The position numbers and the translations under genes were made by a program. The notes under the pieces are model-generated. The model ran no database searches. It was not told the origin of the DNA and saw only the letters and a program-made list of their open reading frames with translations. A stretch of DNA of 64,000 bases, from IMG/VR virus record IMGVR_UViG_3300030376_005322, one strand, 5' to 3'. Of this stretch, positions 43,531 through 62,407 are shown in pieces. This DNA is from an uncultured virus (IMG/VR IMGVR_UViG_3300030376_005322). Its lineage: Duplodnaviria > Heunggongvirae > Uroviricota > Caudoviricetes. Position 1 is the stretch's first letter; every line of letters begins with the position of its first letter.

Positions 43531-43979
43531 TAGGAACCGTAATATAACCGTACTACAACCCAAATATAACCAAGCAAAAAATGAAACACCTAATCAAAAT
43601 CCTATTCACAGCAGTATTCGTGATATCCACCACACACGCAATCATGTACAAACAATGGTGGGCCTTCGGAATACTCGCACCAATAGCAGTAACCGTAGAA
43701 TGGAACAAAAGACTAAATAGGTAAACAAACAGTTGACCTATAAAAAGTATTACAAAAATGCCGGGACCGCTCAAAAGGGGGGGAGAGGGGGGGCCTCTCC
43801 GTTTCGTTCTCTCTTTTGTGCCCGATCTTATTAGAGCCATTTGCAGCCCTTCTAAGACGTCCCCGCGTGAATAAGGTACTTATACCCTACGACGCTAGCG
43901 CGGCACGCCTTAGGCGGCTTATATGAGTGCCCTAACGCGGAACGATCCCCGCCATAAGCGGGGACCGTTTGCGATCCGA

Positions 43980-44273
43980 TCAGATCAGATTAGGCAACCA
44001 TTCCCAAAATATCTCGCCACCTTGAGTTCTAAAGTACTGTTCAGAACCGACCAGAGCGTTAACGTGATGTGATGCATAATTGAATTGAATTGCGACCGTT
44101 AACTCGGTGCCGTCTTTATCTTCTAGCGTGATTGAGACGTAGTTACCTTTAGCCATAGTTACGTAACCGATTAGGTCGTACTGTCCGTACTCCCCGCCAC
44201 GTAGCCAGCCGATGCCCTGATCGCTTAAAGATTGGAGTTGGTTCCAATCTTCTATGAGAATTAAGTGTGACAT
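43980..44273 (-). CDS. hypothetical protein (cassette array)
   Basis: AGGAAG RBS, downstream hairpin at ~43943-43970. Confidence 0.65.
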   Translation of the reverse strand: MSHLILIEDWNQLQSLSDQGIGWLRGGEYGQYDLIGYVTMAKGNYVSITLEDKDGTELTVAIQFNYASHHVNALVGSEQYFRTQGGEIFWEWLPNLI

Positions 44274-44354
44274 TTGTTTCTTCTTCCTATTTGATTAAGT
44301 GTTTAATCTAAACACTGTCAAGAGTGGCGACGTTGCCGCCACTCAAGACGCTAC

Positions 44355-44618
44355 TTAGATTATTCCCACTATGAGCAACTCATGAGCGGCAGTAGCGTTG
44401 TCTGCGATCATAGTTGCACGGTTGGCCTTCATAGTGTTCTTGTGAGTCACTCCACATATTTGGTCGTTGCCATATTGGTTTACGATTGTGGTGTTCAAAA
44501 CTAATTTGCTGATACTGGTTACCGGTACACCGTTGTAGATATTTGTGACCTTCACGGTTTTGCGGATATCAGCCAAAACCTTTTTATCGGTGTTTGGTTG
44601 GTTGACTAGTTTGCTCAT
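44355..44618 (-). CDS. hypothetical protein (cassette array)
   Basis: Same AGGAAGAAGAAACAAATG leader as the neighbour; hairpin at 44321-44344. Confidence 0.65.
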   Translation of the reverse strand: MSKLVNQPNTDKKVLADIRKTVKVTNIYNGVPVTSISKLVLNTTIVNQYGNDQICGVTHKNTMKANRATMIADNATAAHELLIVGII

Positions 44619-44861
44619 TTGTTTCTTCTTCCTGTTGCTAAGAGTTTCTCAGCGACAAGGTATTCCTACCAGCATTAGCAACGACCATCAACTCGGGATT
44701 GACCTAACGACCTAAAAAACCCGACTTTGGCCCCTGTTTATATAGAAAAAAAATTTCTGGATTTCTTCTTTTTTAGCCTCTAAAAACACCTAAAAACTAT
44801 TTCTAAAGTCGCCGCGTGCAGCAAATGAGCGCGAGAGAAACCGCGCTATTTCTCAAGATCA

Positions 44862-44923
44862 GAGACCGAGACCGAGACCAACCGAGACCGAGACCGAGAC
44901 CGAGCGCGAGCGCGTGAGCGCGC
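44862..44923 (+). repeat. tandem GAGACC hexamers followed by GAGCGC repeats
   Basis: GAGACC x3, short interruption, GAGACC x3, then GAGCGCGAGCGCGTGAGCGCGC. Confidence 0.85.
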
Positions 44924-44926
44924 TAA

Positions 44927-45009
44927 GTTACCGAGCAGTAACAAATTGAGGGAGTTAGTGAAACAATTCACAATGTTAAGCGTGCCTAACATAGTGAAAC
45001 GTTTCACAA
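44927..45009. promoter_or_regulatory. cluster of palindromic operators (GTTAC-N6-GTAAC, two Rex-like, one IdeR-like)
   Basis: GTTACCGAGCAGTAAC; AGTGAAACAATTCACAA; TGTTAAGCGTGCCTAACA; AGTGAAACGTTTCACAA. Confidence 0.6.
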
Positions 45010-45357
45010 TGTATTTTGAGCGTCGAGACGCCTCCCGGGATGCAGCGTTTCAGATGCAGCGGCGCGTGAATTTTCAAGTGTCAATCTGGGATGCAGCCCT
45101 CGATTAAAATTCAAGTGTGAATGTGGCCCGGCAGGGCCCGGTGCATACACGCAGGTGTGAATCTCAGGCGTGAATCTTGGGAGGTCGAAGTCTAATGAAT
45201 GTTGAATGTCGATGCGGGGCCCGGTGTTCCGGCCTCCGGTCAGCCTTCTCCTATCCGTATATATATACTATACCAGACCTGAGAAAAAAAAGCAACCCCT
45301 AAATAAAAAAAAATAAAAAAAAATCGGGCCACCGTAGCGACCCGATTTTTTAATTCC

Positions 45358-45609
45358 TCAGACGAGGGCGATCCACCGGTGATACCAGCGGTTCGTATCC
45401 CAGCGGATACTTCCCACCTCGATCATCAGCACGAGGGCCTCACGGAAGTCCTTCTCGCTGAAGTGACGGAGAGGGTGAGATTCGATCTCATACTCCACTT
45501 CTGCTCTCAGGTCCTCCGTTGGGAGATCGAAGTCGTCGCCTTGTTCGATCTGCCTCGCACGACAGGTGTTGAGTATATGGAACTCATAATTCTTATGAGT
45601 GGTTCTCAT
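45358..45609 (-). CDS. hypothetical protein (cassette array)
   Basis: AAGGAGGT RBS, own promoter (GAGGTTG...TATTAT), terminator 45320-45351. Confidence 0.7.
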   Translation of the reverse strand: MRTTHKNYEFHILNTCRARQIEQGDDFDLPTEDLRAEVEYEIESHPLRHFSEKDFREALVLMIEVGSIRWDTNRWYHRWIALV

Positions 45610-45778
45610 GTTCTACCTCCTTAGTAGCACCCTTTAATAATACCTTGACATGAAAGAAACAACAACCTCGAAAGCAATATTTCTTAAATAAATATTTCTG
45701 AAATAATTTAGTTTTGAGGTTGGTGTTGGCGTGTGCACAAAGTACAATAGATAAGGTAAACAACTACGAAAGGAAACC

Positions 45779-45943
45779 ATGCCAGACTTCAACCACACCG
45801 AGGAAGAACTTCAACTCTTCACTCATGAGGAACTTGTTGAGATAATTCTCTTCAACCAAATGATTCGACTTAGGAGAAGAAGGAATGAGGAAGACCTTCA
45901 CACTCGGATCAGAGACCTAACCAATCTGCTACTCGCAGACTGA
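45779..45943 (+). CDS. 54-aa protein (not in ORF track)
   Basis: MPDFNHTEEELQLFTHEELVEII...; GAAAGG RBS, GAGGTTG-20nt-TACAAT promoter, hairpin at 45950-45980. Confidence 0.7.
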   Translation: MPDFNHTEEELQLFTHEELVEIILFNQMIRLRRRRNEEDLHTRIRDLTNLLLAD

Positions 45944-46049
45944 TCAAACCGGGAAGGGGGGCGAAAGTCCCCCAACCCGATGATGCGGGGCCTCCGGTCC
46001 TCCGGGCCAGTACGCGCAAATGTGGGGGCTCTCACCCCCACGCTCAACT

Positions 46050-46193
46050 TTAGAAAGTTCCGTTCACCATGTCTTCGATGTTCTTGGCAACCTTACTTTT
46101 GTTACGGCGTCGGTCTGCCTTGTTGTTTACTTTGCGCTCTGCTTTGGTAATCCAGTAGTTCGCTCGGTTGGTGTTGTTTGTTCCTGCTTGCAT
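46050..46193 (-). CDS. 47-aa basic protein (not in ORF track)
   Basis: MQAGTNNTNRANYWITKAERK...; AAAGGAAG RBS, own promoter and hairpin. Confidence 0.65.
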   Translation of the reverse strand: MQAGTNNTNRANYWITKAERKVNNKADRRRNKSKVAKNIEDMVNGTF

Positions 46194-46365
46194 TGTTTCT
46201 TCCTTTGCTATTTGGTTATATATTAACTATACACTCTTAATTGACTAATACCAACCTCTAAATAAATAAATATTAAATAAATAATTAGTAAGAAATCTTT
46301 GTTTTGAGGTTGCGGTTAGTGTGGGTATAGAGTATAATGGTTATATACCAATAAGGAGGTGAGCA

Positions 46366-46653
46366 ATGAAACAGCAAGACTTAAGCGATCACGGTTTAGT
46401 TGAGACAGTCACAATGTCTGGAGACCTTAAACAGAATCCAGCGGCGACAGTCCACAGGATCGTAACCGCTTGGCAAGCCAGCGAGCGAGTAATGTTTGAA
46501 GAGAAATTCTATTATGTGTTCTCTTACAACCGTTACGACACCGATGGCGAGACCTTCACCAGAAGGCAAAAATTGTCAAGACGGTTTACATCCTTAGGCG
46601 AGTGTAAAGAATCCCTCAGTGAAGAGTTCGAGGAATTCAAGCCACTATTCTAA
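46366..46653 (+). CDS. hypothetical protein (cassette array)
   Basis: TAAGGAGGTG RBS, GAGGTTG-20nt-TATAAT promoter, hairpin 46661-46688. Confidence 0.75.
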   Translation: MKQQDLSDHGLVETVTMSGDLKQNPAATVHRIVTAWQASERVMFEEKFYYVFSYNRYDTDGETFTRRQKLSRRFTSLGECKESLSEEFEEFKPLF

Positions 46654-46796
46654 ACGGTGAAGGTTGGGAGGTGAAAGCCTTCCAACCTGAATCCGTGCGG
46701 GGCCTCCGGTCCTCCGGCCGGGTACGCGCAAATATGGGGGGCCTTAACGCTTCACCCTCCCCCCCAAGCGGTTGGGGGGAAGGTGTTGCTATCGCG

Positions 46797-47060
46797 TTAT
46801 ACTATGTCGGTTTTTTTCCAACCGGTAGGGACTGATGATATTTTGAAATATCCTGTCGCCTTGTTTGTGATTGGGTTAAAAGCAAAACCCATTCCGCTCG
46901 AAATGACTGCGATCATATCGCCACCGTTATAAGTGAAGATGTCAGCCTTTCCTTCATTTTTCAAGAAGGCGATTCGCCATTTCCAGTTTTCCGCTTTCAT
47001 GTTGCAAGGGTTGTAGAGTCTTTCGACTGCTTCTTCCCCTGTTAGTGTTTCGTAGAGCAT
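46797..47060 (-). CDS. hypothetical protein (cassette array)
   Basis: AAAGGAGG RBS, promoter and hairpin. Confidence 0.7.
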   Translation of the reverse strand: MLYETLTGEEAVERLYNPCNMKAENWKWRIAFLKNEGKADIFTYNGGDMIAVISSGMGFAFNPITNKATGYFKISSVPTGWKKTDIV

Positions 47061-47180
47061 GTGCTCCTCCTTTGTTGTATATATTAACTATACACTAATA
47101 CCCAACATTTAGCAACCCCAAACTAAAATTATTTCAGAAATCTTTTAATCCAGATGCGGGGCGAGAAGGCGCGAGGACAC

Positions 47181-47194
47181 CGAACGTATGTTCG
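47181..47194. promoter_or_regulatory. SOS (LexA) box, Gram-positive type
   Basis: CGAACGTATGTTCG is an exact CGAAC-N4-GTTCG. Confidence 0.7.
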
Positions 47195-47267
47195 ATGCGG
47201 GGCCTCCGGTCCTCCGGCCGGGGGGCGCGAGAATTGGAGGGCTCTCGCCCTCCGCATCTCGTAAGCG

Positions 47268-47519
47268 CTATTTCTTCACTCTCGCTTGACCAGCGAACCG
47301 AGAGAGAACCTCTGCCTTCTTCGCTATCTCTCGGTCTTTGCGTATCGCTATGGCGTGAAGAGTTTTAATGTCTCGTTCTGCCTTTGCGAGGTCTAACCCT
47401 GATTGGATTAGTTCTTCCTTGAGAGAGTCGATCTCTTTGTAGAGGTCACCTCTTTCTTGAAGTGCTAAAAACGTTATGAGAACAAATCCCACTAACGCTA
47501 CTATTGTTAATGCTAACAT
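47268..47519 (-). CDS. membrane-anchored coiled-coil protein
   Basis: N-terminal TM followed by heptad pattern; GAAAGG RBS. Confidence 0.7.
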   Translation of the reverse strand: MLALTIVALVGFVLITFLALQERGDLYKEIDSLKEELIQSGLDLAKAERDIKTLHAIAIRKDREIAKKAEVLSRFAGQARVKK

Positions 47520-47653
47520 TTGATTTCCTTTCGTAGTTGCTTACCCTTTAATAATACCTTCATTTCAACTAGATACCAACCTCAAAACAAAGAAATCTTA
47601 GAAATATTTTAAGCCGGATGCGGGGGCTACCGAAGTGCGGGGGGCGTTGAGGT

Positions 47654-47687
47654 TTGTGAAAACTTTCACTAATCGAACAGACGTTCG
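47654..47687. promoter_or_regulatory. adjacent Rex-like and LexA boxes
   Basis: TTGTGAAAACTTTCACT then CGAACAGACGTTCG. Confidence 0.65.
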
Positions 47688-47814
47688 GTGCGGGGCTCCC
47701 GGTCCTCCGGCCGGGTTCGCGGGAATTTGGGGGGGATATCTTCCCCCCCTTTCATTTATTCCCTTCTCTGGTTTGGGGGATTCTGTTGCCACGCTCCCCC
47801 GAGCGCCGAGTCCA

Positions 47815-48228
47815 TCAGTCTTCTAAGACACCTAGTTCAAGCCCTGAACCGTCGCTATCTCCGATATTCTGAAGATAGTCAAGCGGATCAGTCGCACACC
47901 AGACCGTTGCCGCTCGTGGTACGTCTTTTGTACCGGTAGCGATACCGTCTCTATCAGCCTTGCGTATCCAAGAGATAATGTAAGTATCTGGTTTGGATAG
48001 TTTCGCAACATTGATAGCGATGTGGTTTGCAGGGTTCTTAGGGTTACCAGTGATAGCAACTACAGTCCTTTTATGTTGGACTGCTCGAAGTTTCGCAACT
48101 TCGGCGCGTTGTGTACCTTTGACGGCATCGCCTAAGAACTTCAACCAACTACTTCGCCGACCTGTCGGCCCCATAGGGCGACCTGTCTTTTTGTTGTTGG
48201 TGTTGTGTCCCACGCTAACAAGTTTCAA
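47815..48228 (-). CDS. hypothetical basic protein (cassette array)
   Basis: AAAGGAGGTG RBS before TTG start; own promoter. Confidence 0.7.
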   Translation of the reverse strand: MKLVSVGHNTNNKKTGRPMGPTGRRSSWLKFLGDAVKGTQRAEVAKLRAVQHKRTVVAITGNPKNPANHIAINVAKLSKPDTYIISWIRKADRDGIATGTKDVPRAATVWCATDPLDYLQNIGDSDGSGLELGVLED

Positions 48229-48343
48229 TTTTTCACCTCCTTTATTTGCTTACCCTATTTATTCTAGGCCGCTCACAGCCAATACCAACCTCAAAACTAA
48301 TAAATCTTAGAAATATCTAAGAAATATTTATGCCCTAAATAGG

Positions 48344-48412
48344 GGTACAGGTGTTCGATTAGTGAGCACTTAGTGAAACAATTCACAAACTACTTAGTGA
48401 AACATTTCACAA
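48344..48412. promoter_or_regulatory. degenerate LexA box plus two Rex-like boxes
   Basis: GGTACAGGTGTTCG; AGTGAAACAATTCACAA; AGTGAAACATTTCACAA. Confidence 0.6.
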
Positions 48413-48703
48413 AGTCAGATTTTGCGGGGGCGGGGGACCTCCGGTCTCCCGGGCTACATCGCGTGTGTGAATTTCGTGTGTGAATTTGGCTTCCGGTGCC
48501 TATACGCAGGTGTGAATTTGGGCTCCCGGCTTTCATCGATCCACTTCATAGGTGTGAATCTTGGCCCGGAGGGCCCCGGTGCCTATACGCAGGTGTGAAT
48601 TTTGACCTCGAACTTCTCCCCCCAACCACCTCTCTGGTTGGGGGAGTTTCTGTTGCCACGCTTTGCTATTAGTGCGCCGAGTCTGAGTCAGTAGTCCAAC
48701 GAA

Positions 48704-48928
48704 TTAAATTACGTTTGCATGAGGTCGGGGATCACTAATGATGATCGGTTTTACCGTTCCTCGTTCGTAATCTTCCAACGCCTCCGTCATTCCGCAATCG
48801 CTGCAAATCCAGATTCGTTGCTCGGTGTTCCGAGTCAAACGACTTAAGGCATTTGTTTCGATCGGGGAACGTAATTCGGTTACGTCACATTTAGGACAAA
48901 TTGCTGTTTCCACTTTCACCTCCTCCAT
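48704..48928 (-). CDS. small zinc-ribbon protein
   Basis: CPKC...ALSR......ICSDCG..EA; true start possibly GTG after GGAGG. Confidence 0.65.
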   Translation of the reverse strand: MEEVKVETAICPKCDVTELRSPIETNALSRLTRNTEQRIWICSDCGMTEALEDYERGTVKPIIISDPRPHANVI

Positions 48929-49267
48929 TTGCTTACCCTTTAAGCGTACACTGTTGATTGACTAATCACAAGTGACATGTGTCACACCAAGTCCTCCGGT
49001 TGAGAGTAATAAGAATGTTGGCGGCCGGGTCTCCCGGTCCTTCCGGGGCAAGACGCACTTTTCCCTATGTATATATAATAGCAAATTTTCAACCAAATAG
49101 CAACCCCAAATTAAAATTATTTCAGAAATATTTTATTTTAAGATTTCTAAGATTTCTTTATTTTGAGGTTGGTATATATGCCAAAAAAAGATACTATTAA
49201 AGGAGTGGAGGTGCTGAATAAAAACCACCATGTTAAGCAACCCTAACAAACTTAAAAGGAGTTTGAT

Positions 49268-49705
49268 ATGAAAGTAATAACGATAGAACATAGAAAGATT
49301 AAAGACGGAGTGCCCTACACACTCCTACAACAACAACTAAGTTGGTTCCGTTCACTCGGTAACTACGCCAAAGGTTGTGGTTGGAAAGTTGAACAACCAG
49401 CCTCTGTTGATCGTGCCGCTACTAATTGGATCGCAAATGGAACTTACGCCATAGCGAACTTTACAGTAACGCCACCAGTCAAAGGTTGGTTCCGTTTGAA
49501 TTGGGTACGCCCAAAGACACGGAAGAACAACTACTCCGACACTCAAGCGAAGCAAGAAATTGTTCGCACTGTAAAACTCAAAGTTTTACAAATTGACGGA
49601 GTAGACGCCACCGGAGTATCGGCACAAGACGTGACCGACTACCTCCGAGGCTTGACCACTCACAATTCCATCACCATAGGAATTGACGAACAAAAAAATT
49701 GGTAG
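49268..49705 (+). CDS. hypothetical protein (cassette array)
   Basis: AAAGGAG RBS, GAGGTTG-20nt-TACTAT promoter, GAAA-loop hairpin 49728-49747. Confidence 0.75.
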   Translation: MKVITIEHRKIKDGVPYTLLQQQLSWFRSLGNYAKGCGWKVEQPASVDRAATNWIANGTYAIANFTVTPPVKGWFRLNWVRPKTRKNNYSDTQAKQEIVRTVKLKVLQIDGVDATGVSAQDVTDYLRGLTTHNSITIGIDEQKNW

Positions 49706-49855
49706 GAGTTCAGCACCTCCAGCCCGACGCCTCCCGAAAGGGAGGCGAAAGGCCTCCGGTCTTCCGGGCTGCAGCGCGTGTGTGAATCTTGCGTGTGAAT
49801 TCCTCCGGTGTTCCACGATCCACTTGATAGGTGTGAATTTTGGCTTCCGGCTTGG

Positions 49856-49930
49856 TGGTGACCCTAGAGAGAATTGAACTCTCGTTTCCAACTTGAAAGG
49901 CTAGCGTATTATCCACTATACGATAGGGCC
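49856..49930 (-). tRNA. tRNA-Glu (TTC), CCA encoded
   Basis: GGCCCTA acceptor stem, D arm, anticodon loop CT-TTC-AA, T arm GAGAG-TTCAATT-CTCTC, 3' ACCA. Confidence 0.9.
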
Positions 49931-49988
49931 GTGTATGTGTTCCGGGTAGGGCGAAACTATCGGGGAGGGCCGAAACCCTCCCCAAATG

Positions 49989-50246
49989 TTAAACTGCTTC
50001 GGGCAGGTAGTCCGACCCGATAGCCGCGATCCGAGTGTCAGCAAAACGTTTCGCGTTGTGCTCGGCTGGGTGAGTTTCACCTTCTTCAAGGATAGGGAAC
50101 TCGTACCCGCGTGGGTCTAAACCGGTAACAGTTGTATAAATCCTGTTTCCGTTCTCATCAAGGAATGAGTAGGCGCAGGTGGTACGGTTTCTGCGATGTC
50201 TCGCTGATTCCGCCTCCGTTCTGCGTGGTGTGTTTAATCTGGTCAT
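49989..50246 (-). CDS. hypothetical protein (cassette array)
   Basis: Own promoter; hairpin GGGAGGGCCGAAACCCTCCC downstream. Confidence 0.65.
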   Translation of the reverse strand: MTRLNTPRRTEAESARHRRNRTTCAYSFLDENGNRIYTTVTGLDPRGYEFPILEEGETHPAEHNAKRFADTRIAAIGSDYLPEAV

Positions 50247-50531
50247 TTTGGCTCTTTCTGGTTAGTGGTGAAGCCGATTGCCTCACCCTTTCAATATAAC
50301 TCCATATTGAACAAATACCAACCTCTAAATAAATAAATCTTAGAAATCTTTTTGCCTAAAAATCTGCGCCTCCCGGTCATACCCATAATAGATAGCACCA
50401 GCAGCGCCCGGTCCTTCCGGGCAGAGAAATATGTCATCGGAGGAGGGTAACCACTCCCCCCTCCGGTGACATCGGGTTGACTGGATCGGAGGGAAAAGGA
50501 GTAAACCTCCGGCCCGAGTCTTTATATCTTT

Positions 50532-50753
50532 TTAGAGATCAACTTTTGGTTTCCCTCCATAGCCTCCGGCGGCGAGCATGAACTTTGCATAGTCAAATCG
50601 TGGATTATCTGCCGCGAAATGATCTGCCCATTGCTCACAGGTTTCCCGGTGCGCCTTTTTGTCGGTTACGGTCTTAGTGCTTCTGCTGAGCACTCCGGCC
50701 ATGTCCCTATAGTGTTTTCTTGTGTATAGCATTTTTGCCTCTTTCTTTGTCAT
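50532..50753 (-). CDS. conserved small phage protein
   Basis: 'TRKHY...A......FAADNPRFD..KF..A' pattern; leaderless start. Confidence 0.7.
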   Translation of the reverse strand: MTKKEAKMLYTRKHYRDMAGVLSRSTKTVTDKKAHRETCEQWADHFAADNPRFDYAKFMLAAGGYGGKPKVDL

Positions 50754-50970
50754 ATTTTAAGTATACCTTGAATTGACCTAGTTCCACTGTGACATCTGTC
50801 ACACCGCCCCCGGTCTGCTCTATATGTAAATGTGGAAAATCCCCCGGTACTCCCGGTTGCAAGTTCATGTGTGAATCTGCGTGTGAATATGGGTGTGTAG
50901 GTGTGAATGCCGCTCCCGGTCTTCCGGGCTGGCAAGCGTGAATTGGGGAGGGCCGAAACCCTCCCCGACT

Positions 50971-51270: not shown

Positions 51271-51559
51271 ACTTTAATGGTACACCGTAAATTGACCTTT
51301 CCACTGTGACATCCGTCACATCGCCACAGCCTGCGCCAGCCTGCGCCAGCCTGCGCCTCCCGGGCATATATGCGCCTCCCGGGCATACGGTAGACAGCGC
51401 CCGGTCCCCCGGGTGCAGCCGTGTGAATTTGCGACCGTGTGAATTTGCAGTCGTGTGAATTTAACCACGTGTAAATTTAATACGATTTCTTTGTTTTGAG
51501 GTTGGTATTCACTGTGCAAGGCTTATAATGGATAAGAGAAACAACTACAGGAGAAACAA

Positions 51560-55220: not shown

Positions 55221-55394
55221 GTATATAAGGATAAAGGGTAAATCTGGGAATTACTCCACAATGTGACAGAAGTCACAAAATTAAAAAAGTAGCGGCATCC
55301 GGTACACCCGGCACCCGGGCGCACTGCAAGGAAGAAGCAGCGCCCGGGTTGCATGGGGTGGATAAATCTTGCGTGTGAATCTCATGTGTGAATT

Positions 55395-55742
55395 TCATGC
55401 GTTTAACCAGACTGTCGGAGGAGCAGTATCTTCCCACATATCGTCATACCTGCACCAATAACAGACGCCATCTTGCGTGAACATCGTTATCCCATAATGG
55501 GTATCGCAGTTATAGCAAGCGTCGTAATCTTTATCACCTGCCGCCGCTTTCTCTTTAGCAATATCGCTGTCACGGTGTTCCGGTAACACGAAAGGGACAA
55601 TCACTACCTTCAAAGGAGTGCCGTTCATGTCGCGAGGGATATCTTTATCTGTTACACAGTTTGGGCAAACAAAGTAGTCGTGGGCGACATAAGTCTCCAT
55701 GTCCATGTCTATAAGAACATCACATCTTGAGCATTCGCTCAT
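55395..55742 (-). CDS. Cys-rich protein
   Basis: Four CxxC pairs; start ATG 55742. Confidence 0.6.
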   Translation of the reverse strand: MSECSRCDVLIDMDMETYVAHDYFVCPNCVTDKDIPRDMNGTPLKVVIVPFVLPEHRDSDIAKEKAAAGDKDYDACYNCDTHYGITMFTQDGVCYWCRYDDMWEDTAPPTVWLNA

Positions 55743-56197
55743 ATTATCTCTACTTCTTTTACACCGTATTGGCTTAGAGTGCCTACCCTTGAACGTCCGG
55801 CGTACTCGCATTTAGCAGAGGAGTCGTGCTCCCAGAACATGCCATTGTCGTCGCCTTTTTCGTGCGCCCAACCCCGAGAAACAAAATCTCGTGCTATCTC
55901 TAAAACCTTCCGTTCAATGTAAGCCTCATCAACATGACGTGCAGACAAATCCCGGTCTGGGTCTACCCACTGGTCATAGGCGAGCCAGCCGTGATCTAGG
56001 GTGACCTCTTTCTCTACGAGAACCCTGACCTTTATGGACTTATCCCGAGCAACAAAATCTTCAACGAATTCGTTGAACAGTTTCTGTTTGTAGCATTCAT
56101 CGTGATAGACCGTTGAGTATTCTGCGTGAACTCCGCCAGAAGTTATCTCTGGGTCATCGGTAAAGTCTGAACAATTTTCGTAATCGCAAACCAACAT
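55739..56197 (-). CDS. hypothetical protein
   Basis: 152 aa, operon member. Confidence 0.6.
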   Translation of the reverse strand: MLVCDYENCSDFTDDPEITSGGVHAEYSTVYHDECYKQKLFNEFVEDFVARDKSIKVRVLVEKEVTLDHGWLAYDQWVDPDRDLSARHVDEAYIERKVLEIARDFVSRGWAHEKGDDNGMFWEHDSSAKCEYAGRSRVGTLSQYGVKEVEII

Positions 56198-56199
56198 GA

Positions 56200-56355
56200 C
56201 TATCCTTCCTCTACGCTAACAAGTTCGCCTAGTTCCATTTCTTGTGCTATATCCCAAGCACTGTCCGGTGTCTCCGCCTCAATACAAACTGATTGAGTGC
56301 CCCATTGCCAGACATTAAAAAACTCAACTTTATATTTATTCAGTGTGTCCGGCAT
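56200..56355 (-). CDS. DpnD/PcfM-like small protein (not in ORF track)
   Basis: MPDTLNKYKVEFF...VCIEAETPDSAWDIA... Confidence 0.55.
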   Translation of the reverse strand: MPDTLNKYKVEFFNVWQWGTQSVCIEAETPDSAWDIAQEMELGELVSVEEG

Positions 56356-56357
56356 GA

Positions 56358-56615
56358 TTATTCCTCATCATCTTCGTCGTCGTCATCTGAATAACCGTCG
56401 CCATCATATTCCCAACCTGTATACATGTCGGTAACCATGCTTGGTTCTGGGAAGCCGTGTTCAACTGCTTCCGTAATTTCAAATGAGTTCCATTCCGCAT
56501 CAGTCAGAGCCCTAGCCTCTGAAACTTTCTGCGATGCTTCCTCTGGGCTGTCTGCGTCTATTTCAAATATGCCGCTGACGGTCCATTCTGTAACTTCTAC
56601 TCTGTAACTTCCCAC
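56358..56615 (-). CDS. DpnD/PcfM-like acidic protein
   Basis: 'YRVEV....FEIDADSPEEA.QKV'. Confidence 0.65.
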   Translation of the reverse strand: MGSYRVEVTEWTVSGIFEIDADSPEEASQKVSEARALTDAEWNSFEITEAVEHGFPEPSMVTDMYTGWEYDGDGYSDDDDEDDEE

Positions 56616-56672
56616 TGTATTCTTCTTCCTGTATTGTTTGTTATATCTAATTGTAAAGGTTTAATTGACTAA

Positions 56673-57155
56673 TCACAACGTGTCATCGGTCACATCGCCT
56701 CCGGCAACGCTTTCTTCTAAGTTGCGTAAATAAGTTCTGATCTTGTATATGTCGTGGCGATGCCATGCCGCCGAAACATGTATTTGTTGTTGGTTCCCCA
56801 ATTTTTCCATTTCGTCATACGGCAATTCTGCCAACCAATCCAAGAACTCTATGGTCCGGGTGAGGTCATTATCTTTGCGGTCTACTTTTTCCTCGCGGAC
56901 TTCCGGCATAGGTTTTAGAGAGAAGAGTATTTCATCGTCGCCGTCTTTTTCCCAATCACCGTTTTCGCTAACGATCATGTAAACATCAACATGTTTATTC
57001 TCGCTCCGGGCCTTATAGACTTTGTAGGCCTCACGGATTGCAGTATCCGAGAAAGCATAAGAGCGTTGAAACTCGCCATCTACCCACATTGTGTACCTAT
57101 GATCTCCGGTCGAATGAGGTGGCTTATGTTCTCTGTAGTCTTTCCAACTAGTCAT
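56673..57155 (-). CDS. hypothetical protein
   Basis: AAGGAAG RBS. Confidence 0.65.
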   Translation of the reverse strand: MTSWKDYREHKPPHSTGDHRYTMWVDGEFQRSYAFSDTAIREAYKVYKARSENKHVDVYMIVSENGDWEKDGDDEILFSLKPMPEVREEKVDRKDNDLTRTIEFLDWLAELPYDEMEKLGNQQQIHVSAAWHRHDIYKIRTYLRNLEESVAGGDVTDDTL

Positions 57156-57757
57156 TGCTTTCTTCTTCCTTAATAGAGAAATGGCTCATGATATTGTCAA
57201 ATGCTTCGAGCAAGTTTTTAGCGTGGGCCATCTCTGGGTTTTCGGTATTTTCTGTTTCTTTATCCATACCTTTCAGGATAAGGGGTAAATCTGGGAATTA
57301 CTCATTATTCCTTGAATTGTTTTGTGACCCATGTCACACGCCCTCCGGTCAATAGAATGACAGCGGGCTCCCGGTTACCCGGGCTTGCAGTAACTTAATG
57401 CAGCAAGCGTGTGAATCTTGCGTGTGAATCATTGTAAAGATTTCAACACGTTAATTTCAGACTGCCAATCATCTCCGTACTGCTCATTCTCTTCTAAGAA
57501 GTTTATGATCGTAGCCAGCACCCGGCTGTTGTATTGTTTATCTGTTTCTTGATAAGTCATGGCTTCCTTATATCTTCTCTAGGATCGCGGCGACCTTTTT
57601 TAAGGTCTCTAAATCCATATTGTTAATAGCATCTTCGTTGATGAGTTTTGGGCTCCTCCACATGTCTGCTAATTCTTCTGATGGGTCTTTCTCTGTGTTT
57701 GTCATATATTTAATGATAGAGGGTAAATCTGGGAATTACTCTATAATGTGACAGGAG

Positions 57758-58075
57758 TCACACATTTATTACCCTTAAGTGCATTCTCCCATCGTTAGTG
57801 ATCTGCCCGGTAGGCAAAGCCTCTACCCGAACAACTTCCGCTCTAGGGAAATATTTATCCCGATAAGTCTCAGCCGCCTTCCGGTAACGCCAGACCGAAG
57901 CCGTAGCCATATCCGGGCTGGCATAGAACCGTTCGTGGACGCTGTAATATCTTCCGGTATGTAGTGGTAGGTCCGAGTCGCGTAACGCATACATTGAGTG
58001 GACAGACTTCTTGTTCCACCCGTGAATCATCTCTATAGGGCCGCGCAGAACATACCCGGTTGGGTGCTTGCTCAT
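57758..58075 (-). CDS. hypothetical protein
   Basis: GGAGG RBS. Confidence 0.6.
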   Translation of the reverse strand: MSKHPTGYVLRGPIEMIHGWNKKSVHSMYALRDSDLPLHTGRYYSVHERFYASPDMATASVWRYRKAAETYRDKYFPRAEVVRVEALPTGQITNDGRMHLRVINV

Positions 58076-58077
58076 AT

Positions 58078-58221
58078 TTAAGCCTCCTCAACATATACTT
58101 CTTGAAGTTTCCCCATCGGGACTATTTCAGCATCGTTATATGCTTGCTCAGGGTCTCCGGCTTCGATGGTGTATACCATTTGTCCGTATTCGTGTACAAA
58201 TGAAACGTTGTATAAGGTCAT
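58078..58221 (-). CDS. DpnD/PcfM-like small protein
   Basis: 'YNVSF......YTIEAGDPEQAY'; start ATG 58221. Confidence 0.55.
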   Translation of the reverse strand: MTLYNVSFVHEYGQMVYTIEAGDPEQAYNDAEIVPMGKLQEVYVEEA

Positions 58222-58961
58222 GCGTGCACCCCATTCTGTATGTCGTGAATAGTTACTTTCTTCAAACTTTCTAAAGAAATCTCCCATTCAGGAACAAGAC
58301 GTTTGGTGTCTCCGCACATCGCTTCAACAACACTTTCACAATTCTCGTAGAACACTCCCCACGCTATTTCTCGTTGATTATCAGTGAGTGTGTCGCCACG
58401 TTCCGGCATCTGGTCAATAAGGTTTTCAGTCTCATCAACTATCTGAACACCGTTATCCCATACGCCGTGATAGCGCCATTCAGGTGCTTCCATAATTGAC
58501 AGCACAGTTATGCGGCAACGATATCGTCTAGAAATAGTTTCTAGAGCCTTCTCCGGTGGGCACCACGCACTTGTAAAAGCGTAAGCGTGAACGAATAGTT
58601 CATCAGCGACAGAGCGAACTTTATTTATATCCAATTCGCCATAGTCGGTACTGAACCCTGCGGTACTGTCAATTTTGCGGAAATCGTAGTCTCCCCACTT
58701 GGAACCCCAATTCAGATCAGCCCATAGGCGACCGTCAATAGTCCCGGCTTCATCATCTTGGTCAGTGAACGCACTGCCGATAACTTCCCCATCTATAACG
58801 ATGTCTTTACGACCATTTTCAGGGAAGGGAATCAAATGACTAATAAAAGAGTCAATTTCTCCGGCGGCGGTATCTTCCAACACAAGATTTAGAATCTTCC
58901 GTTGGGCAGGTGGTGTGTCTGTGAAATCCACAAACATTTTGTTAAATACGTGATTAGGCAT
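58218..58961 (-). CDS. Api92/YubB-like ferredoxin-fold (DUF1281-type) protein
   Basis: MPNH..N, W...NWGSKW, F.SAW.PP motifs. Confidence 0.75.
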   Translation of the reverse strand: MPNHVFNKMFVDFTDTPPAQRKILNLVLEDTAAGEIDSFISHLIPFPENGRKDIVIDGEVIGSAFTDQDDEAGTIDGRLWADLNWGSKWGDYDFRKIDSTAGFSTDYGELDINKVRSVADELFVHAYAFTSAWCPPEKALETISRRYRCRITVLSIMEAPEWRYHGVWDNGVQIVDETENLIDQMPERGDTLTDNQREIAWGVFYENCESVVEAMCGDTKRLVPEWEISLESLKKVTIHDIQNGVHA

Positions 58962-59033
58962 TTTTTAATCTTTCTTGTAAGGGTAACCCTTAACCGAGTC
59001 CCCGAAGGGACCCGGTTGGGTGGGTTTACCGAA

Positions 59034-59294
59034 TTAGTAAACTGATATTGTGGTTTCTGCTTCTAAAGTGATAGTTCCACTAGCGAGAGATTCTTTAATT
59101 TGATCTGTAATCAAATCAGAGAAATCGAACTCGTCTATTTCAGCGCTGACGTAATCAGAGAAATCTACATCTCCAATAGCGTTTTCAACAGCAGTTTCAA
59201 TAGTTCCCTGCATATCTTCGTCTACTTCAGTAGAGGGCAGATAAGGAACTAATGCTTCTGCTAATGCTTTAAGCAATTTTTCTATTGTGTCCAT
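59034..59294 (-). CDS. acidic hypothetical protein
   Basis: AGGAAG RBS; own promoter; hairpin downstream. Confidence 0.65.
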   Translation of the reverse strand: MDTIEKLLKALAEALVPYLPSTEVDEDMQGTIETAVENAIGDVDFSDYVSAEIDEFDFSDLITDQIKESLASGTITLEAETTISVY

Positions 59295-59538
59295 TATTTC
59301 TTCCTAACTATATTTCGGTGGTATATCCACATATATTACGATAGGGGGTAAATCTGGGAATTACTCAAAAAAGACGTGTTTGTTTTGTGACGTGTGTCAC
59401 ATGCTAAAACAGCGCCTCCTCCGGTCTTCCCGGGCTACTGAAAAAAGAAAATACCGCCCGGGGAGCGAAAGAAGTAACAACCCGGGCGGTATAGGAAATC
59501 TGGGAATGCAAATCTGGGATTGCAGCCACGTGTGAATT

Positions 59539-59733
59539 TTAGCGTGTGAATTCCTCCGGATAGTGTATTTTAGTGATCCGGTTACATTCTTCTGCCCAGA
59601 ACTTTGCTTTTTTTATGTCCTCTAATGTGATGTCATCTTCGTCATTCACATAGTTTTCCATATTGTGAGCCTGTGTTTCGTAGAGTAAATCCAACGCTTC
59701 GATTACGATGTCTTTAGGGGTGAAGTCGCTCAT
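59539..59733 (-). CDS. hypothetical protein
   Basis: Last gene of coupled operon. Confidence 0.6.
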   Translation of the reverse strand: MSDFTPKDIVIEALDLLYETQAHNMENYVNDEDDITLEDIKKAKFWAEECNRITKIHYPEEFTR

Positions 59734-60194
59734 TTCTCCCCCAGTCCTTCGGGAAAGTTTTTCTCTAGGTATGTCCGAAAGAATCTTAAGTCTCGTAAAA
59801 TGGAATGAAGTCCTTCGTCGTACTGCTCGTGTTCTTCATTAGACATCTCTAATAGGTTCTTTGAATAAGGCTTTAAGCATTCCAAGAACCTTATGGCTTT
59901 ACCGACACTTTCTGACCAGCAGCCTCTGTCCGGTGACGGTGTATCCCAGTCAATGTCGAACTTGTCGATATTTCCTAAGTGGACATAGATGTCTGCTGGT
60001 ACTCCGGCACCTACATGGTCGCCTTCTTCTACCACGGTAATCAAAAGCCCATGATCGTCATGCCCTTCCTTGACCCCAATTACTTTTGCGCGAAGCCAAG
60101 GCATGGCTACCGTGTCTCCGAATGTTCGGGCTCCTCCCCAGTAATTGAATTCAGTTCCGACAGTTGTTAATTTGTCTAATTCTGATTGGCTCAT
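59730..60194 (-). CDS. hypothetical protein
   Basis: ATGA-coupled. Confidence 0.6.
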   Translation of the reverse strand: MSQSELDKLTTVGTEFNYWGGARTFGDTVAMPWLRAKVIGVKEGHDDHGLLITVVEEGDHVGAGVPADIYVHLGNIDKFDIDWDTPSPDRGCWSESVGKAIRFLECLKPYSKNLLEMSNEEHEQYDEGLHSILRDLRFFRTYLEKNFPEGLGEK

Positions 60195-60388
60195 TGTTCC
60201 TCAACTCCTACTATTGTGCCGTCCGCCGCTGGGTCCTCAACGTATGCTGGTTCCCAGTTCCCGGTGTTCCGTAATGTGTTCCAGTTCGCTTCGTCATCAA
60301 CGAACTTTTGCATTGCTTCCTGTTCACTGTCGGCATCAACCATGACAGCGAACTCTGCTTCTGCAGTGAATGTAACTTGGTATTCCAT
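60191..60388 (-). CDS. DpnD/PcfM-like small protein
   Basis: 'YQVTF......VMVDADSEQEA.QKF'. Confidence 0.65.
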   Translation of the reverse strand: MEYQVTFTAEAEFAVMVDADSEQEAMQKFVDDEANWNTLRNTGNWEPAYVEDPAADGTIVGVEEQ

Positions 60389-60624
60389 TATTGCCCTTTC
60401 TTAACGTTGAACCGTGCGAGAGTTTCCTCATCAAGGTGTGGTGCGATTACGTCCATGAACCATAGGTAACGGTCAATATCTTTGATGCCAGTCAAAAATT
60501 CTGTGACTGCTTCCTTGCGGTCTTTACGAGCCGCTTCGATTACTTGTTGTTCAAACATTGCTAAAATGTTTTTATAACCCTCATCACTTGGGGTCATATC
60601 TACTGTCATTACTTCTTCGCTCAT
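60388..60624 (-). CDS. hypothetical protein
   Basis: First gene of operon behind CRP-like site. Confidence 0.6.
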   Translation of the reverse strand: MSEEVMTVDMTPSDEGYKNILAMFEQQVIEAARKDRKEAVTEFLTGIKDIDRYLWFMDVIAPHLDEETLARFNVKKGQ

Positions 60625-60853
60625 TGTTTTCTTTCTGTCAATAAATGTTGTGGAACTTCCACATATCTAATGGTACACCTTTGGTTGACTTTTACCTCAT
60701 TATTTAAGGGTTAATTTTGTGACGCATGTCACATGCCCGTCCGGTCCCTTCCGGGCTAACCAATCCACACCGCCCGGTCCCTCCCGAATCTGGGAATGCA
60801 AATCTGGGAGTACACCGGCGTGTGAATCTGGGCGTGTGAATTTCACGTGTGAA

Positions 60854-61024
60854 TTACCAGTCTCTAACCTCGTCTGTAGTGATTTCCACCAAAGGTCCAG
60901 CCTCTGCTAAAAGATCAGGGATATGAACAGTTTCGGCATAATGCTCTGCCTCGTCTCTGTCCATTTCAACAGTTGTGATTAGTATGACATTTTCGTAAAC
61001 AAACGAAATATTATATTTTCCCAT
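60854..61024 (-). CDS. 56-aa protein (not in ORF track)
   Basis: MGKYNISFVYENVILITTVEMDRDEAEHYA...; stop overlaps GTGTGAAT motif. Confidence 0.5.
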   Translation of the reverse strand: MGKYNISFVYENVILITTVEMDRDEAEHYAETVHIPDLLAEAGPLVEITTDEVRDW

Positions 61025-61166
61025 TAGATTATCTCATGCCTTCCGTTCTCGTTCTTCTCGGTGAACTTATCTGCACAACAAACATCTCCACCTGTGCTAT
61101 CAAAGAACATGCCTTCATGTTCGTAAATCCGATCCCCACACCAGTCGCATTCTCCGCCTGAATCGC

Positions 61167-61595
61167 TCATTGGTTTATGTACCATTCATCTACGAAGTGC
61201 TCCGCTATTTCACGCCATTGAACTCGCCAGAAGGAACCGATGTCGTCACGAACGTCTGAAAAACCGTAGCCCTTACCTTGGACGATTTCCGACAGTTGGC
61301 AATAATCACCAACAAAGAATTCTTCTAACGCACCAGCAACGTCGTTATGTAAAATATTCCAGCCTGCATTAGTTATCGCAGTAGAGCCAAATGCTTCGCC
61401 TTCGTCAGGGTCCTCGCTATTCCAATGACCAGCCATTTCAAAAACATGGTCAAATATGCCCAGTTCTTTAACCTGTAATTCGCCAGCCCAAAGGTTTACT
61501 GCCCATGTCTCGCGATTAGTCCAGCCGTTGTAATCTTCAAAACCCTCGTGACTTCTCCAATCTATGCGCCGCATTACTTCCTGCTTTTCTTTCAT
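61167..61595 (-). CDS. conserved phage protein with YNGWTN.ETW..NLW motif
   Basis: YNGWTNRETWAVNLW and V.W.EIAEH motifs; start ATG 61595 after GGAGGTG. Confidence 0.7.
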   Translation of the reverse strand: MKEKQEVMRRIDWRSHEGFEDYNGWTNRETWAVNLWAGELQVKELGIFDHVFEMAGHWNSEDPDEGEAFGSTAITNAGWNILHNDVAGALEEFFVGDYCQLSEIVQGKGYGFSDVRDDIGSFWRVQWREIAEHFVDEWYINQ

Positions 61596-61846
61596 TGCGT
61601 CACCTCCACGCCAATAATACGCATGCTGTGTATCTCCATATTGAAACGAGTGAGAGAGTCCCAGCATTCATTGGGCATCGCATACGATCCTTCGGATAGT
61701 TGTGACCATGCCACCGCTCGGGCTTGTAACTCGTTTTGAATTTCGTGACTGAAAGAATCTAATTCGACTTCCACAGTTAGCGCTTCGTTTAGTAATATTT
61801 TGACAAAATAGTTTGTCACTGTTTTCTGTTTTACTACCATTACCAT
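61592..61846 (-). CDS. hypothetical protein
   Basis: First gene behind CRP-like site. Confidence 0.55.
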   Translation of the reverse strand: MVMVVKQKTVTNYFVKILLNEALTVEVELDSFSHEIQNELQARAVAWSQLSEGSYAMPNECWDSLTRFNMEIHSMRIIGVEVTQ

Positions 61847-62197
61847 TCCTTAATGTTGTAAATATGTACACCATCTATGGTAGGGGGTAAATCTGTAATT
61901 GACAAGTGACATGTGTCACACCCAAACAAGCGCCCTCCCGGGTCACCTCCCGGCCTTACCCGGTCTCGAAATCTGGGGATACAGCGCCCGGTGTCAATCT
62001 ACGTGTGAATCTTGCCCGGTGCGGTTACGCAAGTGTGAATTTTGCCCGGTGTGAATCTGGGAATACAGAATCGGGGATACTTTCATGTGTGAATTTTCAT
62101 GTGTGAATCTGGGCACACAAACCCACGTGTGAATCCATGTGTGAATCCCCACCCGCATCAGGGAGATGCAGGCAGGAACCCAACCACATGTGTGAAT

Positions 62198-62407
62198 TTA
62201 ATCGACGAGAGAAGCGGAACCTCTAGTTCCAGCCAAACGAGAAGCCGCAGCACCCTTCACTACAGAAAGGGCAGCAGACACGCCAGCCATAACAATCATC
62301 TTCCACTGATCAACACCAAGGTCCATGACACTATTAGTTGACATAGCGCCAATAGCCGCTTGGCAAAAAGTCGCCAACGTCCTCTCAGCGAGGTCTTTAT
62401 AATTCAT
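62198..62407 (-). CDS. holin, r1t-like
   Basis: 'KDLAER.LATF.QA...W......AALSV.K......G...SASL'. Confidence 0.85.
   Translation of the reverse strand: MNYKDLAERTLATFCQAAIGAMSTNSVMDLGVDQWKMIVMAGVSAALSVVKGAAASRLAGTRGSASLVD

Follow-up and report, generated by a model that had tools for sequence, protein, structure and literature searches.

A strand-specific CCGG word and exchangeable, repeat-bounded cassettes in the early block of an uncultured marine phage

We analyzed a stretch of 64,000 nucleotides (the window) from IMG/VR record IMGVR_UViG_3300030376_005322, which derives from an uncultured, tailed marine phage of the siphovirus type that has almost every gene of the window on the minus strand. 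Between its holin and endolysin genes lies a hyperplastic block of early or host-takeover genes, and this block, or island, is filled with a short word built on CCGG. This word genuinely marks the early block, is strand-specific, and is under selection. Our preferred explanation, held tentatively and at a little less than even probability, joins two layers: a repeat-driven hyperplastic region of gene cassettes and, separate from it, a strand-specific word, CCGGRRG, linked to leftward transcription. The original prediction had described the block as an array of self-contained cassettes joined by a polar CCGG junction motif that would serve an integron-like exchange of modules. The features on which the analysis was anchored are the following.

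43900..62200, minus strand: hyperplastic early/host-takeover block with about 45 small genes, mostly leftward, together with four rightward genes and one tRNA
42235-42957: endolysin gene, left flank of the early block
62198-62407: holin gene, right flank of the early block
54309-55220, minus strand: ArdC-like anti-restriction gene with Pfam and PHROG matches, containing 10 CCGG sites, all of them CCGGR; the anchor gene common to the window and its relatives
45233..59559, minus strand: span of all 29 minus-strand copies of CCGGAGG found by pattern search

The CCGG tetramer occurs 92 times in the first 43.9 kb of the window, 147 times in the 18.3 kb of the block (43.9-62.2 kb), and twice in the last 1.8 kb, the density in the block being about 4-fold that of the remaining window. 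On the plus strand, the base at position -1 of the 147 block sites is T in 79, C in 54, A in 9, and G in 5 (T or C in 133 of 147), and the base at position +4 is T in 61, G in 54, C in 27, and A in 5. In the sense direction of the leftward genes the word becomes CCGGRRG, with CCGGAGG as its top form, and on that strand of the block CCGGA outnumbers TCCGG by 79 to 5. An unbiased k-mer contrast placed CCGGAGG first, with 29 copies in the block, no copy on that strand in the remaining 43.9 kb, and one as the reverse complement; next came ATTCACAC, for which the corresponding counts were 36, 3, and 0. In a pattern search of the window, 32 copies of CCGGAGG were found against 4.6 +/- 2.3 expected, 29 on the minus and 3 on the plus strand.

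Within the block, 66 of the 147 CCGG sites fall within leftward genes, 80 in spacers, and a single one in the rightward genes or the tRNA. The corresponding densities are 14.0/kb for spacers, 5.8/kb for leftward genes, and 0.8/kb (one site in 1.25 kb) for the four rightward genes plus the tRNA, and the rightward genes of the window hold no polar copy in 1.17 kb. This skipping of opposite-strand genes ties the word to leftward transcription units. With 66 sites inside genes, the motif cannot be regarded as a junction motif only, as it had first been described. The word occurs in all three codon frames, and an explanation by codon frame or amino acid content was rejected on that ground. A Shine-Dalgarno function for CCGGAGG was likewise rejected, as only 2 of 66 CCGGRRG copies have a start codon 0-20 nt downstream of them.

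Reading of the spacer sequences revealed a recurrent order. A stop codon is followed by a G/C hairpin with a weak T tail, a linker of 14-17 nt, a CCGG pair, two to four copies of ATTCACAC, CCCAGATT, CCGGRGG, a GTGAC-N4-GTCAC palindrome, and a promoter. In 7 of 11 spacers CCGGRGG precedes the palindrome by 5-10 nt, and the densest and best copies of the word are found between convergent genes or at a distance of 14-17 nt behind terminator hairpins. The CCGG pair itself, with its members 3-8 nt apart, is found in 18 of the 29 spacers longer than 50 bp.

The sequence proposed to be shared among the junctions proved to be so. The pattern CCGGTCYYCCGG has eight matches (45994, 46706, 47206, 47699, 48441, 49756, 50916, and 51401) where 0.02 were expected from 100 shuffles, and its longer core forms a five-copy, 50-nt repeat family, D6. 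The junction variants with five or six intervening nucleotides can also be seen in the sequence. All eight matches are on the plus strand, and the orientation is unchanged whether the neighboring genes are convergent (45994, 46706), tandem (47206, 47699), or divergent (51401); the strand bias and the constant reading direction claimed for the motif were thus both found on counting. The exact 21-nt core had no match in IMG/VR.

45980..46029, plus strand: D6 copy 1, with GCGGGGCC, a CCGG-N4-CCGG pair, a conserved linker, and a terminator hairpin; convergent genes on either side
46692..46741, plus strand: D6 copy 2, the reference copy; convergent genes on either side
47192..47241, plus strand: D6 copy 3; a leftward gene on either side
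47685..47734, plus strand: D6 copy 4; a leftward gene on either side
50902..50951, plus strand: D6 copy 5, 62% identical to the reference copy
(start positions of the long-core copies: 45980, 46692, 47192, 47685, and 50902)

Selection on the word was tested by shuffling synonymous codons within genes. The sense strands of 14 island genes hold 29 CCGGR against 11.9 +/- 2.6 expected, whereas 11 late genes are depleted of CCGGR (10 against 19.2 +/- 3.9 expected) and hold 35 CCGGY against 22.5 +/- 4.3 expected. The ArdC gene of the window has 10 CCGGR against 3.6 +/- 1.4 expected, and the six ArdC genes examined, comprising that of the window and five orthologs, have 10-19 (the orthologs 15-19) against 3.3-10.3 expected. 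The ArdC sites make use of residue pairs common to the orthologs (P-E/D, T-G, and x-R), and they occupy 56 distinct positions, 24 of which were found in one sequence alone. The word is placed through synonymous codon choice. In 132 site comparisons with close relatives (78-98% identity), CCGG was kept 121 times, whereas the behavior of all 4-mers would predict 104, and it ranked 4th among 147 4-mers, with the caveat, which counts against our interpretation, that overlapping relatives bring in some window sites several times and the counts are partly dependent.

The polar-word system is kept in relatives. In every listed locus whose ArdC is at least 53% identical, the polarity relative to ArdC is the same, and these loci also show one-sided TTCACAC. 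The counts of TCCGG versus CCGGA range from 3 versus 86 in the strongest locus (L100), through 8 versus 117 (L102) and 16 versus 142 (L095), to 0 versus 3 in the weakest (L091). The bases flanking CCGG depend on lineage, being RCCGGA in L092, L100, and L102 and mostly CCCGG[G/C] in L087. In the related contig G2, 68 CCGGA are concentrated in an 11-kb island and none occur in the 40 kb upstream, where a pyrimidine follows 38 of 39 CCGG sites. The holin gene upstream and the endolysin gene downstream of this island, the same flanks as those of the early block, are syntenic with the window, and only four island genes are common to the two. Two homology-supported genes on the opposite strand of the G2 island contain no majority-strand CCGGR in 0.84 kb.

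More distant relatives (G006-G008, loci L144-L155, with a head protein about 65% identical) have no CCGG and no GATC in 66-78 kb, a complete avoidance of two 4-bp palindromes in genomes of 45-47% GC. They carry instead a 6-9-kb island of another polar word, GCCCT/AGGGC. The form GCCCTGG occurs 19-20 times against none in reverse in G007 and G008, and the complementary CCAGGGC 11 times against none in the island of G006. Beside each of these islands is a CGCG-rich block, with CGCG/GCGC in 6-8-fold excess.

We read the word as DNA-level or co-transcriptional control that depends on orientation, in the manner of stoperators, with an RNA-level tag as the main rival; most likely it is a transcription-linked, orientation-dependent tag of the early block. 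In the mechanism that we infer, CCGGRRG would tag leftward units and spacers, be kept off the same strand of late genes, and be recognized as leftward transcription proceeds, serving as a stop, pause, or insulator whose effect depends on orientation, the reader being a DNA-bound factor or a modified elongation complex. CCGG pairs 14-17 nt behind weak-tailed terminator hairpins would isolate neighboring units, as would the single copies 5-10 nt upstream of promoter palindromes. The copies inside genes would allow the entire early block to be shut down, the late genes being spared for want of the word.

Stoperators are known from cluster A mycobacteriophages, where L5 gp71 and the TipsytheTRex repressor have been studied (PMC9283540). 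As described in that report, they are asymmetric sites in many copies at promoters and between genes, their orientation is correlated with the direction of transcription, and it has been proposed that they halt initiation as well as elongation, depending on how they are oriented. Many-copy asymmetric sites with such an orientation, at promoters and between genes, are likewise found here. Stoperators differ, again from that text, in being 13-mers present just over twenty times per genome, in short intergenic spaces genome-wide, in temperate phages with a known repressor, whereas the word here is at most a 7-mer, numbers 66 copies as CCGGRRG and 147 as CCGG, stands also in genes, and is limited to one block of a phage in which no integrase was found and no repressor is tied to the word. 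Small winged-helix proteins are encoded in the window at 38729-39028 and 3-626.

Several observations weigh against this interpretation. Outside the island, the avoidance of CCGGR in genes on the minority strand goes with the majority strand in absolute terms (4 versus 21) and not with the sense strand of the genes themselves (14 versus 11). Such a result agrees with a transcription-linked model only on condition that transcripts of the majority direction run across these genes. Copies of the word behind terminators or between convergent genes may lie outside any transcript, and a 7-mer is short for a specific DNA-binding site. The coding load depends on lineage, ArdC having 2-4 CCGG in L087, L089, L093, and L104 versus 15-21 in others. 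No reader protein was found, the island proteins and a conserved upstream protein of 184 residues giving no informative family or Atlas match, with no usable Atlas match for the candidate readers at 47815-48228 and 62786-63340, and no RNA run was present among the listed runs containing the block. As to whether the DNA strand or the transcript is what matters, the evidence points both ways.

An RNA-level tag, which we consider unlikely on balance and yet the first of the competing explanations, would make CCGGRRG in early mRNAs the target of an endoribonuclease or RNA-binding protein of phage or host. Early messages would be cleared or silenced at the late switch while late messages without the word escape, on the model of the T4 endoribonuclease RegB, which targets GGAG in early mRNAs (PMC1702504). 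The likeness is that a short word marks early messages for inactivation and others are spared. Nearly every leftward early gene carries the word on its sense strand, late genes are purged of it on theirs, and opposite-strand units do not have it; a specificity of 5-7 nt is typical for endoribonucleases, and the word changes with lineage, from RCCGGA in three of the loci named above to GCCCT/AGGGC in the distant relatives. RegB sites lie mainly in ribosome-binding sites, whereas only 2 of 66 copies here are 0-20 nt upstream of a start codon and copies also stand behind terminators. The densest copies, behind terminator hairpins or between convergent genes, would enter RNA only by read-through, and the avoidance in minority-strand genes follows absolute strand. 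Neither a RegB-like protein nor any match to an RNase family was found among the open reading frames.

A Chi-like role is improbable in our estimate. The word would be a sequence of the host RecBCD or AddAB system, in one orientation, that stops the exonuclease entering from a genome or concatemer end, and the recombination hotspot in the block would be a side effect. Chi is a short polar word that is over-represented through codon choice and whose sequence depends on the host. The present word, too, is a short polar sequence, fairly rich in G on one strand; selection acts on it in every codon frame, and it differs among phage lineages, as expected if their hosts differ; moreover, the block is recombinationally hyperactive, and one related contig (G1) begins about 550 bp upstream of the island, within a gene. 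However, Chi is genome-wide, is not tied to the direction of single units, and is not purged from phage late genes, and a Chi-like function predicts neither the fixed placement beside promoters and terminators nor the same-strand purge from the rest of the genome. We consider it the less likely because it accounts neither for the skipping of opposite-strand island genes nor for the late-gene purge. Chi words of the E. coli type and others were tried and rejected, GCTGGTGG occurring once on the plus and four times on the minus strand with no clustering.

Still less probable is that the words, gathered in the first-expressed DNA next to the anti-restriction genes, act as decoys or engagement points for a host defense nuclease or a modification enzyme whose recognition site is asymmetric. 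The word shares this asymmetry with the sites of Type III, Type ISP, and BREX systems, and the block encodes ArdC and other likely anti-defense genes. The complete avoidance of CCGG and GATC by the distant relatives points to restriction pressure on these words in the wider clade. Against decoys, the opposite orientation exists elsewhere, with 11 TCCGG in the first 40 kb of G2, so head-to-head site pairs are not avoided, and the skipping of opposite-strand genes and the placement at promoters and terminators are left without a mechanism. A C5 methyltransferase was considered as the cause of the CCGG load and rejected, with none in five related records.

That the word is a functionless by-product, with spreading CCGG-bearing repeats giving rise to small genes, would agree with spacers being the densest compartment (14/kb), with the many duplicated elements of the block, and with the many island genes that lack detectable relatives in the libraries searched, but it is very improbable and already disfavored by the ArdC residue pairs and the synonymous shuffles: conserved ArdC gains the word by synonymous codons at ortholog-shared pairs, CCGG sites are retained above other 4-mers, late genes on the same strand fall below synonymous expectation, and distant relatives have a different word in the equivalent island.

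The second layer is the cassette structure. Twenty-eight (28) families of dispersed direct repeats make the block a mosaic; among them are a 71-nt early-promoter cassette, GTGTGAAT arrays, the 21-nt element GGGTAAATCTGGGAATTACTC, and promoters that bear a palindrome. A search for promoter-like sequences gave 35 sites, where shuffled sequences gave 25.8 +/- 6.0, and a search for terminator-like sequences gave 36, where shuffled ones gave 17.9 +/- 5.0; together with the repeat families these sites bear out the description of the units as self-contained.

47540..47610, minus strand: reference copy of the early-promoter cassette (family D1), 71 nt, with an AT-rich upstream part, TTTTGAGGTTGG, and a -10 element
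54284..54320, minus strand: example of a ATTCACAC array, directly 3' of the ArdC stop codon, ArdC being the last gene of its operon
48972..61919, no strand assigned: span of 12 exact GTGAC-N4-GTCAC palindromes, upstream of leftward promoters, 10 of the 12 reading TGTGA-N6-TCACA
55237-55256, 57284-57303, 57722-57741, and 59347-59366, plus strand: copies of GGGTAAATCTGGGAATTACTC, with a degenerate copy at 61883
55395..55742, minus strand: example of a variable cassette, lost in L084 and truncated in L083 and run X9
49856..49930, minus strand: tRNA-Glu (UUC), predicted by both ARAGORN and Rfam

Family D1 has seven copies, the others starting at 45626, 46215, 47076, 48249, 49064, and 50282, and sigma-70-like hexamers mark several of them as putative promoters. 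The predicted promoter families are D1, D5, D8, and D9, and the AT-rich early type also includes D11 and D14. The ATTCACAC arrays (families D2, D3, D4, and D7) stand directly 3' of the last stop codon of an operon, with further arrays at 45139, 48449, 49764, 55344-55393, 57380-57429, 60818-60854, and 61965-62197; in the window GTGTGAA occurs 40 times on the plus strand and once on the minus strand. The half-word AATCTGGGA recurs in tandem near these arrays.

The palindromes start at 48972, 50789, 51306, 53172, 53712, 54200, 55263, 57324, 57748, 59387, 60719, and 61906. When one mismatch was allowed, 16 matches to GTGAC-N4-GTCAC were found against 1.5 expected, and all 12 exact ones lie within 48.97-61.92 kb. 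The arrangement TGTGA-N6-TCACA is that of CRP-type sites. The leftward promoters bearing the palindrome have no clear -35 element, and at the one promoter measured, in the 51271 spacer, 22 nt separate the end of the palindrome from a TAnnnT -10 element. These features suggest an activator-dependent promoter class distinct from the early sigma-70 cassettes. The GGGTAAATCTGGGAATTACTC element (21 nt, family D8) is conserved immediately ahead of the starts of four or five leftward genes and may represent a third class of promoter or leader. Stem-loops with poly-G and poly-C arms are present at 47729-47749 (GGGGGGG..CCCCCCC), at 48619-48644 (CCCCCAACC..GGTTGGGGG), and at about 49963-49984 and 50946-50967 (GGGGAGGG..CCCTCCCC).

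Comparison with close relatives showed cassettes deleted, replaced, moved, or inverted in loci L083, L084, and L086 and in Logan contigs from runs X3, X4, X5, and X9; gene order, predicted to vary among relatives, does change in the three loci. The gene at 55395-55742 is replaced in L086 and run X5 by a gene that is found at 60854-61024 in the window, and in L086 the replacement is joined on its right within ATTCACAC arrays and on its left at the start of a gene, GAGATAAT...ATG. A different gene takes the place of 57429-57560 in L084, and replacements were also found at 57260/57569 and 60843/61033. A 3.4-kb deletion lies between two copies of the D15 repeat (45122/48562), and a 3.2-kb deletion in run X5 joins two early promoters (47100/50314). 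A 44-bp deletion runs exactly between two CCGG copies (50368/50413) and is present also in L081. Two opposite-strand joints (45783/47516 and 46652/47519) are read as an inversion of the gene 47268-47519, to judge from the contigs. In runs X4 and X5 the tRNA-Glu is at 51990 instead, with joints 49936/51991 and 51989/49856, the latter being the one backward joint among those listed and explained by this relocation; on these contigs the tRNA behaves as a movable cassette.

The breakpoints were compared with random positions. Among 38 endpoints, 19 are within 15 bp of a gene boundary (5.0 at random), 17 are near any CCGG (7.8), 8 are near GTGTGAA (1.8), and 5 are near a CCGG pair (1.4), these statistics covering 19 joints (15 + 4) of a set with at least 17 more. 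The joints come from metagenome contigs of at least 85% likeness, and single ones may come from relatives; both this and the restriction of the statistics to those 19 joints count against our interpretation. Most breakpoints are at gene starts or stops, ATTCACAC arrays, or early-promoter repeats, and few are on CCGG pairs. On the question whether breakpoints fall on the junction motif, the comparison is between 5 of 38 endpoints near a CCGG pair and 19 of 38 at gene boundaries or 8 of 38 at GTGTGAA. The comparisons support real module exchange through dispersed regulatory repeats; the site-specific mechanism proposed for it is not supported, with no recombinase found in the searches made and most breakpoints elsewhere.

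In the scheme we envisage, each cassette would combine a G/C-rich stem-loop and an AT-rich upstream element with a promoter of the sigma-70 type and a ribosome-binding site. Since regulatory repeats of 25-70 nt are dispersed through the block, homologous or short-homology recombination would delete, swap, move, and invert the units, possibly assisted by phage exonuclease and SSB, and no dedicated site-specific recombinase would be involved. A recombination-type gene neighborhood is present outside the block, and its exonuclease, SSB, and neighboring proteins may drive the exchanges.

38186..40402, minus strand: recombination-type gene neighborhood outside the block
38186-38602, minus strand: SSB gene (SSB, 1.3e-29)
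38729-39028, minus strand: small LexA-type winged-helix protein (LexA_DNA_bind, 2e-5)
39036-39830, minus strand: PD-(D/E)XK exonuclease (phrog_298 exonuclease, 7.6e-42)
39830-40402, minus strand: protein of 190 residues adjoining the exonuclease, no family match

No tyrosine or serine recombinase (Phage_integrase, Resolvase) was found among the window open reading frames scanned with Pfam or PHROGs, in agreement with the original prediction, and six-frame searches of five related records for integrase or resolvase also found none, although controls matched 14 of 14 and 12 of 14 genomes. We give very little credence to an integron-like system in which CCGG-N4-CCGG hairpins are strand-specific recombination sites of a dedicated recombinase. 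Polar mini-hairpins do stand at many cassette borders, one 44-bp deletion runs exactly between two CCGG copies, and 3 of 19 joints (45122/48562, 48569/51414, and 50368/50413) have both ends within 13 bp of a CCGG pair. However, these three joints lie within longer shared repeats, such as D15 (87% identity over 39 nt), that suffice for homologous recombination. The word also occupies coding DNA (66 of the 147 sites), where a recombination site would do harm, and its removal from the same strand of late genes speaks for a regulatory tag and against a junction site; most joints are at gene starts and stops or ATTCACAC arrays.

The block resembles integrons in having arrays of small cassettes with strand-specific, hairpin-forming junctions. 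An attC site is a 55-140-bp imperfect inverted repeat with paired core sites, whereas no paired core sites are visible here in a 50-nt direct repeat with a 4-5-bp CCGG-N4-CCGG mini-hairpin. Integrons have an adjacent IntI, and none was found; their cassettes are promoterless, in one orientation, and served by a common promoter, while those of the block have their own promoter repeats and both orientations, four genes being reversed, and breakpoints are mostly away from the junction element. Lacking IntI and the attC architecture and having autonomous, two-way cassettes, the array resembles a promoter-early stem-loop (PeSL) region and not an integron.

PeSL cassettes, which operate in the manner envisaged here, were described from hyperplastic regions of T4-type phages (Arbiol et al. 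2010, PMC2839356). That report gives as their features dense small genes of unknown function, a repeated sigma-70-like early promoter with an AT-rich upstream region, a stable stem-loop that is often poly-G then poly-C, dispersal of the repeats through the plastic region, insertions, deletions, or replacements between close relatives that are bounded by cassettes, and mini-circles arising when nearby cassettes exchange. In the window, the promoter feature is represented by the predicted families D1, D11, and D14, the stem-loops are found as listed above, and the 47100/50314 deletion is one of the exchanges bounded by cassettes. The system here differs in belonging to a siphovirus-type marine phage and not to a T4-type myovirus, in its further repeats (ATTCACAC arrays, CCCAGATT, palindrome-dependent promoters, and the CCGG word), and in its inversions and mobile tRNA; a word that saturates coding DNA and is purged from late genes goes unmentioned in the abstract and section 13 of PMC2839356.

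Of the other cargo named in the original prediction, ArdC (ArdcN 2.8e-25, MPTase-PolyVal 1e-36) and the tRNA were recovered, the latter by ARAGORN and Rfam, and the Api92-like match is present but weak (E 5.6e-4, below the Pfam cut-off). Most island proteins have no Pfam or PHROG family at the thresholds used. The variable block is inserted between holin and endolysin genes, and the G2 island with the same flanks is much shorter and largely different. Elsewhere in the window are the following structural genes, together with a gene for an HNH protein.

6820-11151: tape measure gene
26085-27386: major head protein gene
30907-33297: portal gene

A probable replication module lies beyond the tail genes at 3-2320, where a winged-helix HTH_36/DnaD_N-like protein (3-626) runs off the end of the window and a HIRAN-domain protein is encoded at 1206-1667. 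The portal is at most 38% identical to actinophage portals, and a megablast search with 18.3 kb matched no isolate relative at the DNA level. At least 20 sequencing runs, mostly labeled marine or viral metagenomes, contain at least part of 52.2-62.2 kb, three of them more than 0.9 of the sampled words from it, and the same sequence was assembled in independent contigs (L081, 98.95% identical over 7.6 kb; L120, 99.8% over 3.7 kb). A scan of genome contigs for prophage relatives found only three contigs, all from metagenome-assembled genomes. Two of the five related records, G001 and G002 (loci L136-L143), are permuted contigs of one relative, 99.99% identical in their overlap, with shared and unique parts totaling about 86 kb. 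Each is without a different segment of about 22-25 kb, and the overlap pattern indicates a circular map of about 86 kb, exceeding either contig. Among the five related records no sigma factor was found, and the search there for a phage RNA polymerase, also negative, is uninformative as the RNA_pol control matched nowhere.

Some further elements were noted in the block. Three features occur in a 739-bp non-coding stretch at 44619-45357: tandem GAGACC repeats at about 44860-44900, a long hairpin with an A/T tail at 45318-45351, and GTGAAAC..TTCAC palindromes in pairs, which are seen again at 48360-48410. The stretch could be an operator or origin-like locus. Contigs of relatives from runs X3 and X4 diverge from the window at 44991. 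Three copies of a 10-bp tandem unit, CAGCCTGCGC (plus strand), make up 51327-51357, and the copy number differs in the 99%-identical contig L081. A weak match to alpha-proteobacterial transfer-messenger RNA (E 6e-4), with 25 bits where the gathering score is 50, coincides at 47772-47886 (minus strand) and 48640-48690 with a repeated TTCTGTTGCCACGC...GCGCCGAGTC element 3' of two terminator hairpins, which may be a tRNA-like fragment; ARAGORN made no prediction at either position. CRISPR-repeat mimicry or a known RNA family in the spacers was considered and rejected, since in an Rfam search at E<=5 only the tRNA was above its gathering score, the rest being at chance level.

The cassette comparisons provide direct population-level evidence that a marine siphovirus-type phage reshuffles its anti-defense and host-takeover genes through its own regulatory repeats. 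They extend the PeSL idea beyond T4-type phages, and the repeats give a rule by which swappable accessory genes can be delimited in metagenomic phages. Of the two findings the polar word holds the greater interest, and it is a very strong cis signal: being confined to the block, selected at synonymous sites, and substituted in relatives, it implies a reader that distinguishes early from late DNA or RNA. A literature search for a strand-biased motif of early regions returned nothing relevant, which is not proof of its absence from print. It is possible, though we would not count on it, that the island is one case of a widespread and undescribed labeling of the early block on one strand by a dense short word in virulent phages. 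If so, the word would be written by codon choice, purged from late genes, and replaced, here by GCCCT, where the first word is forbidden, and a single factor would treat the whole block differently, for example in a global early shut-off or in protection. The reader, once found, would add a new regulatory or protective mechanism of phages, and the word would allow the early regions of uncultured phages to be recognized from sequence alone.

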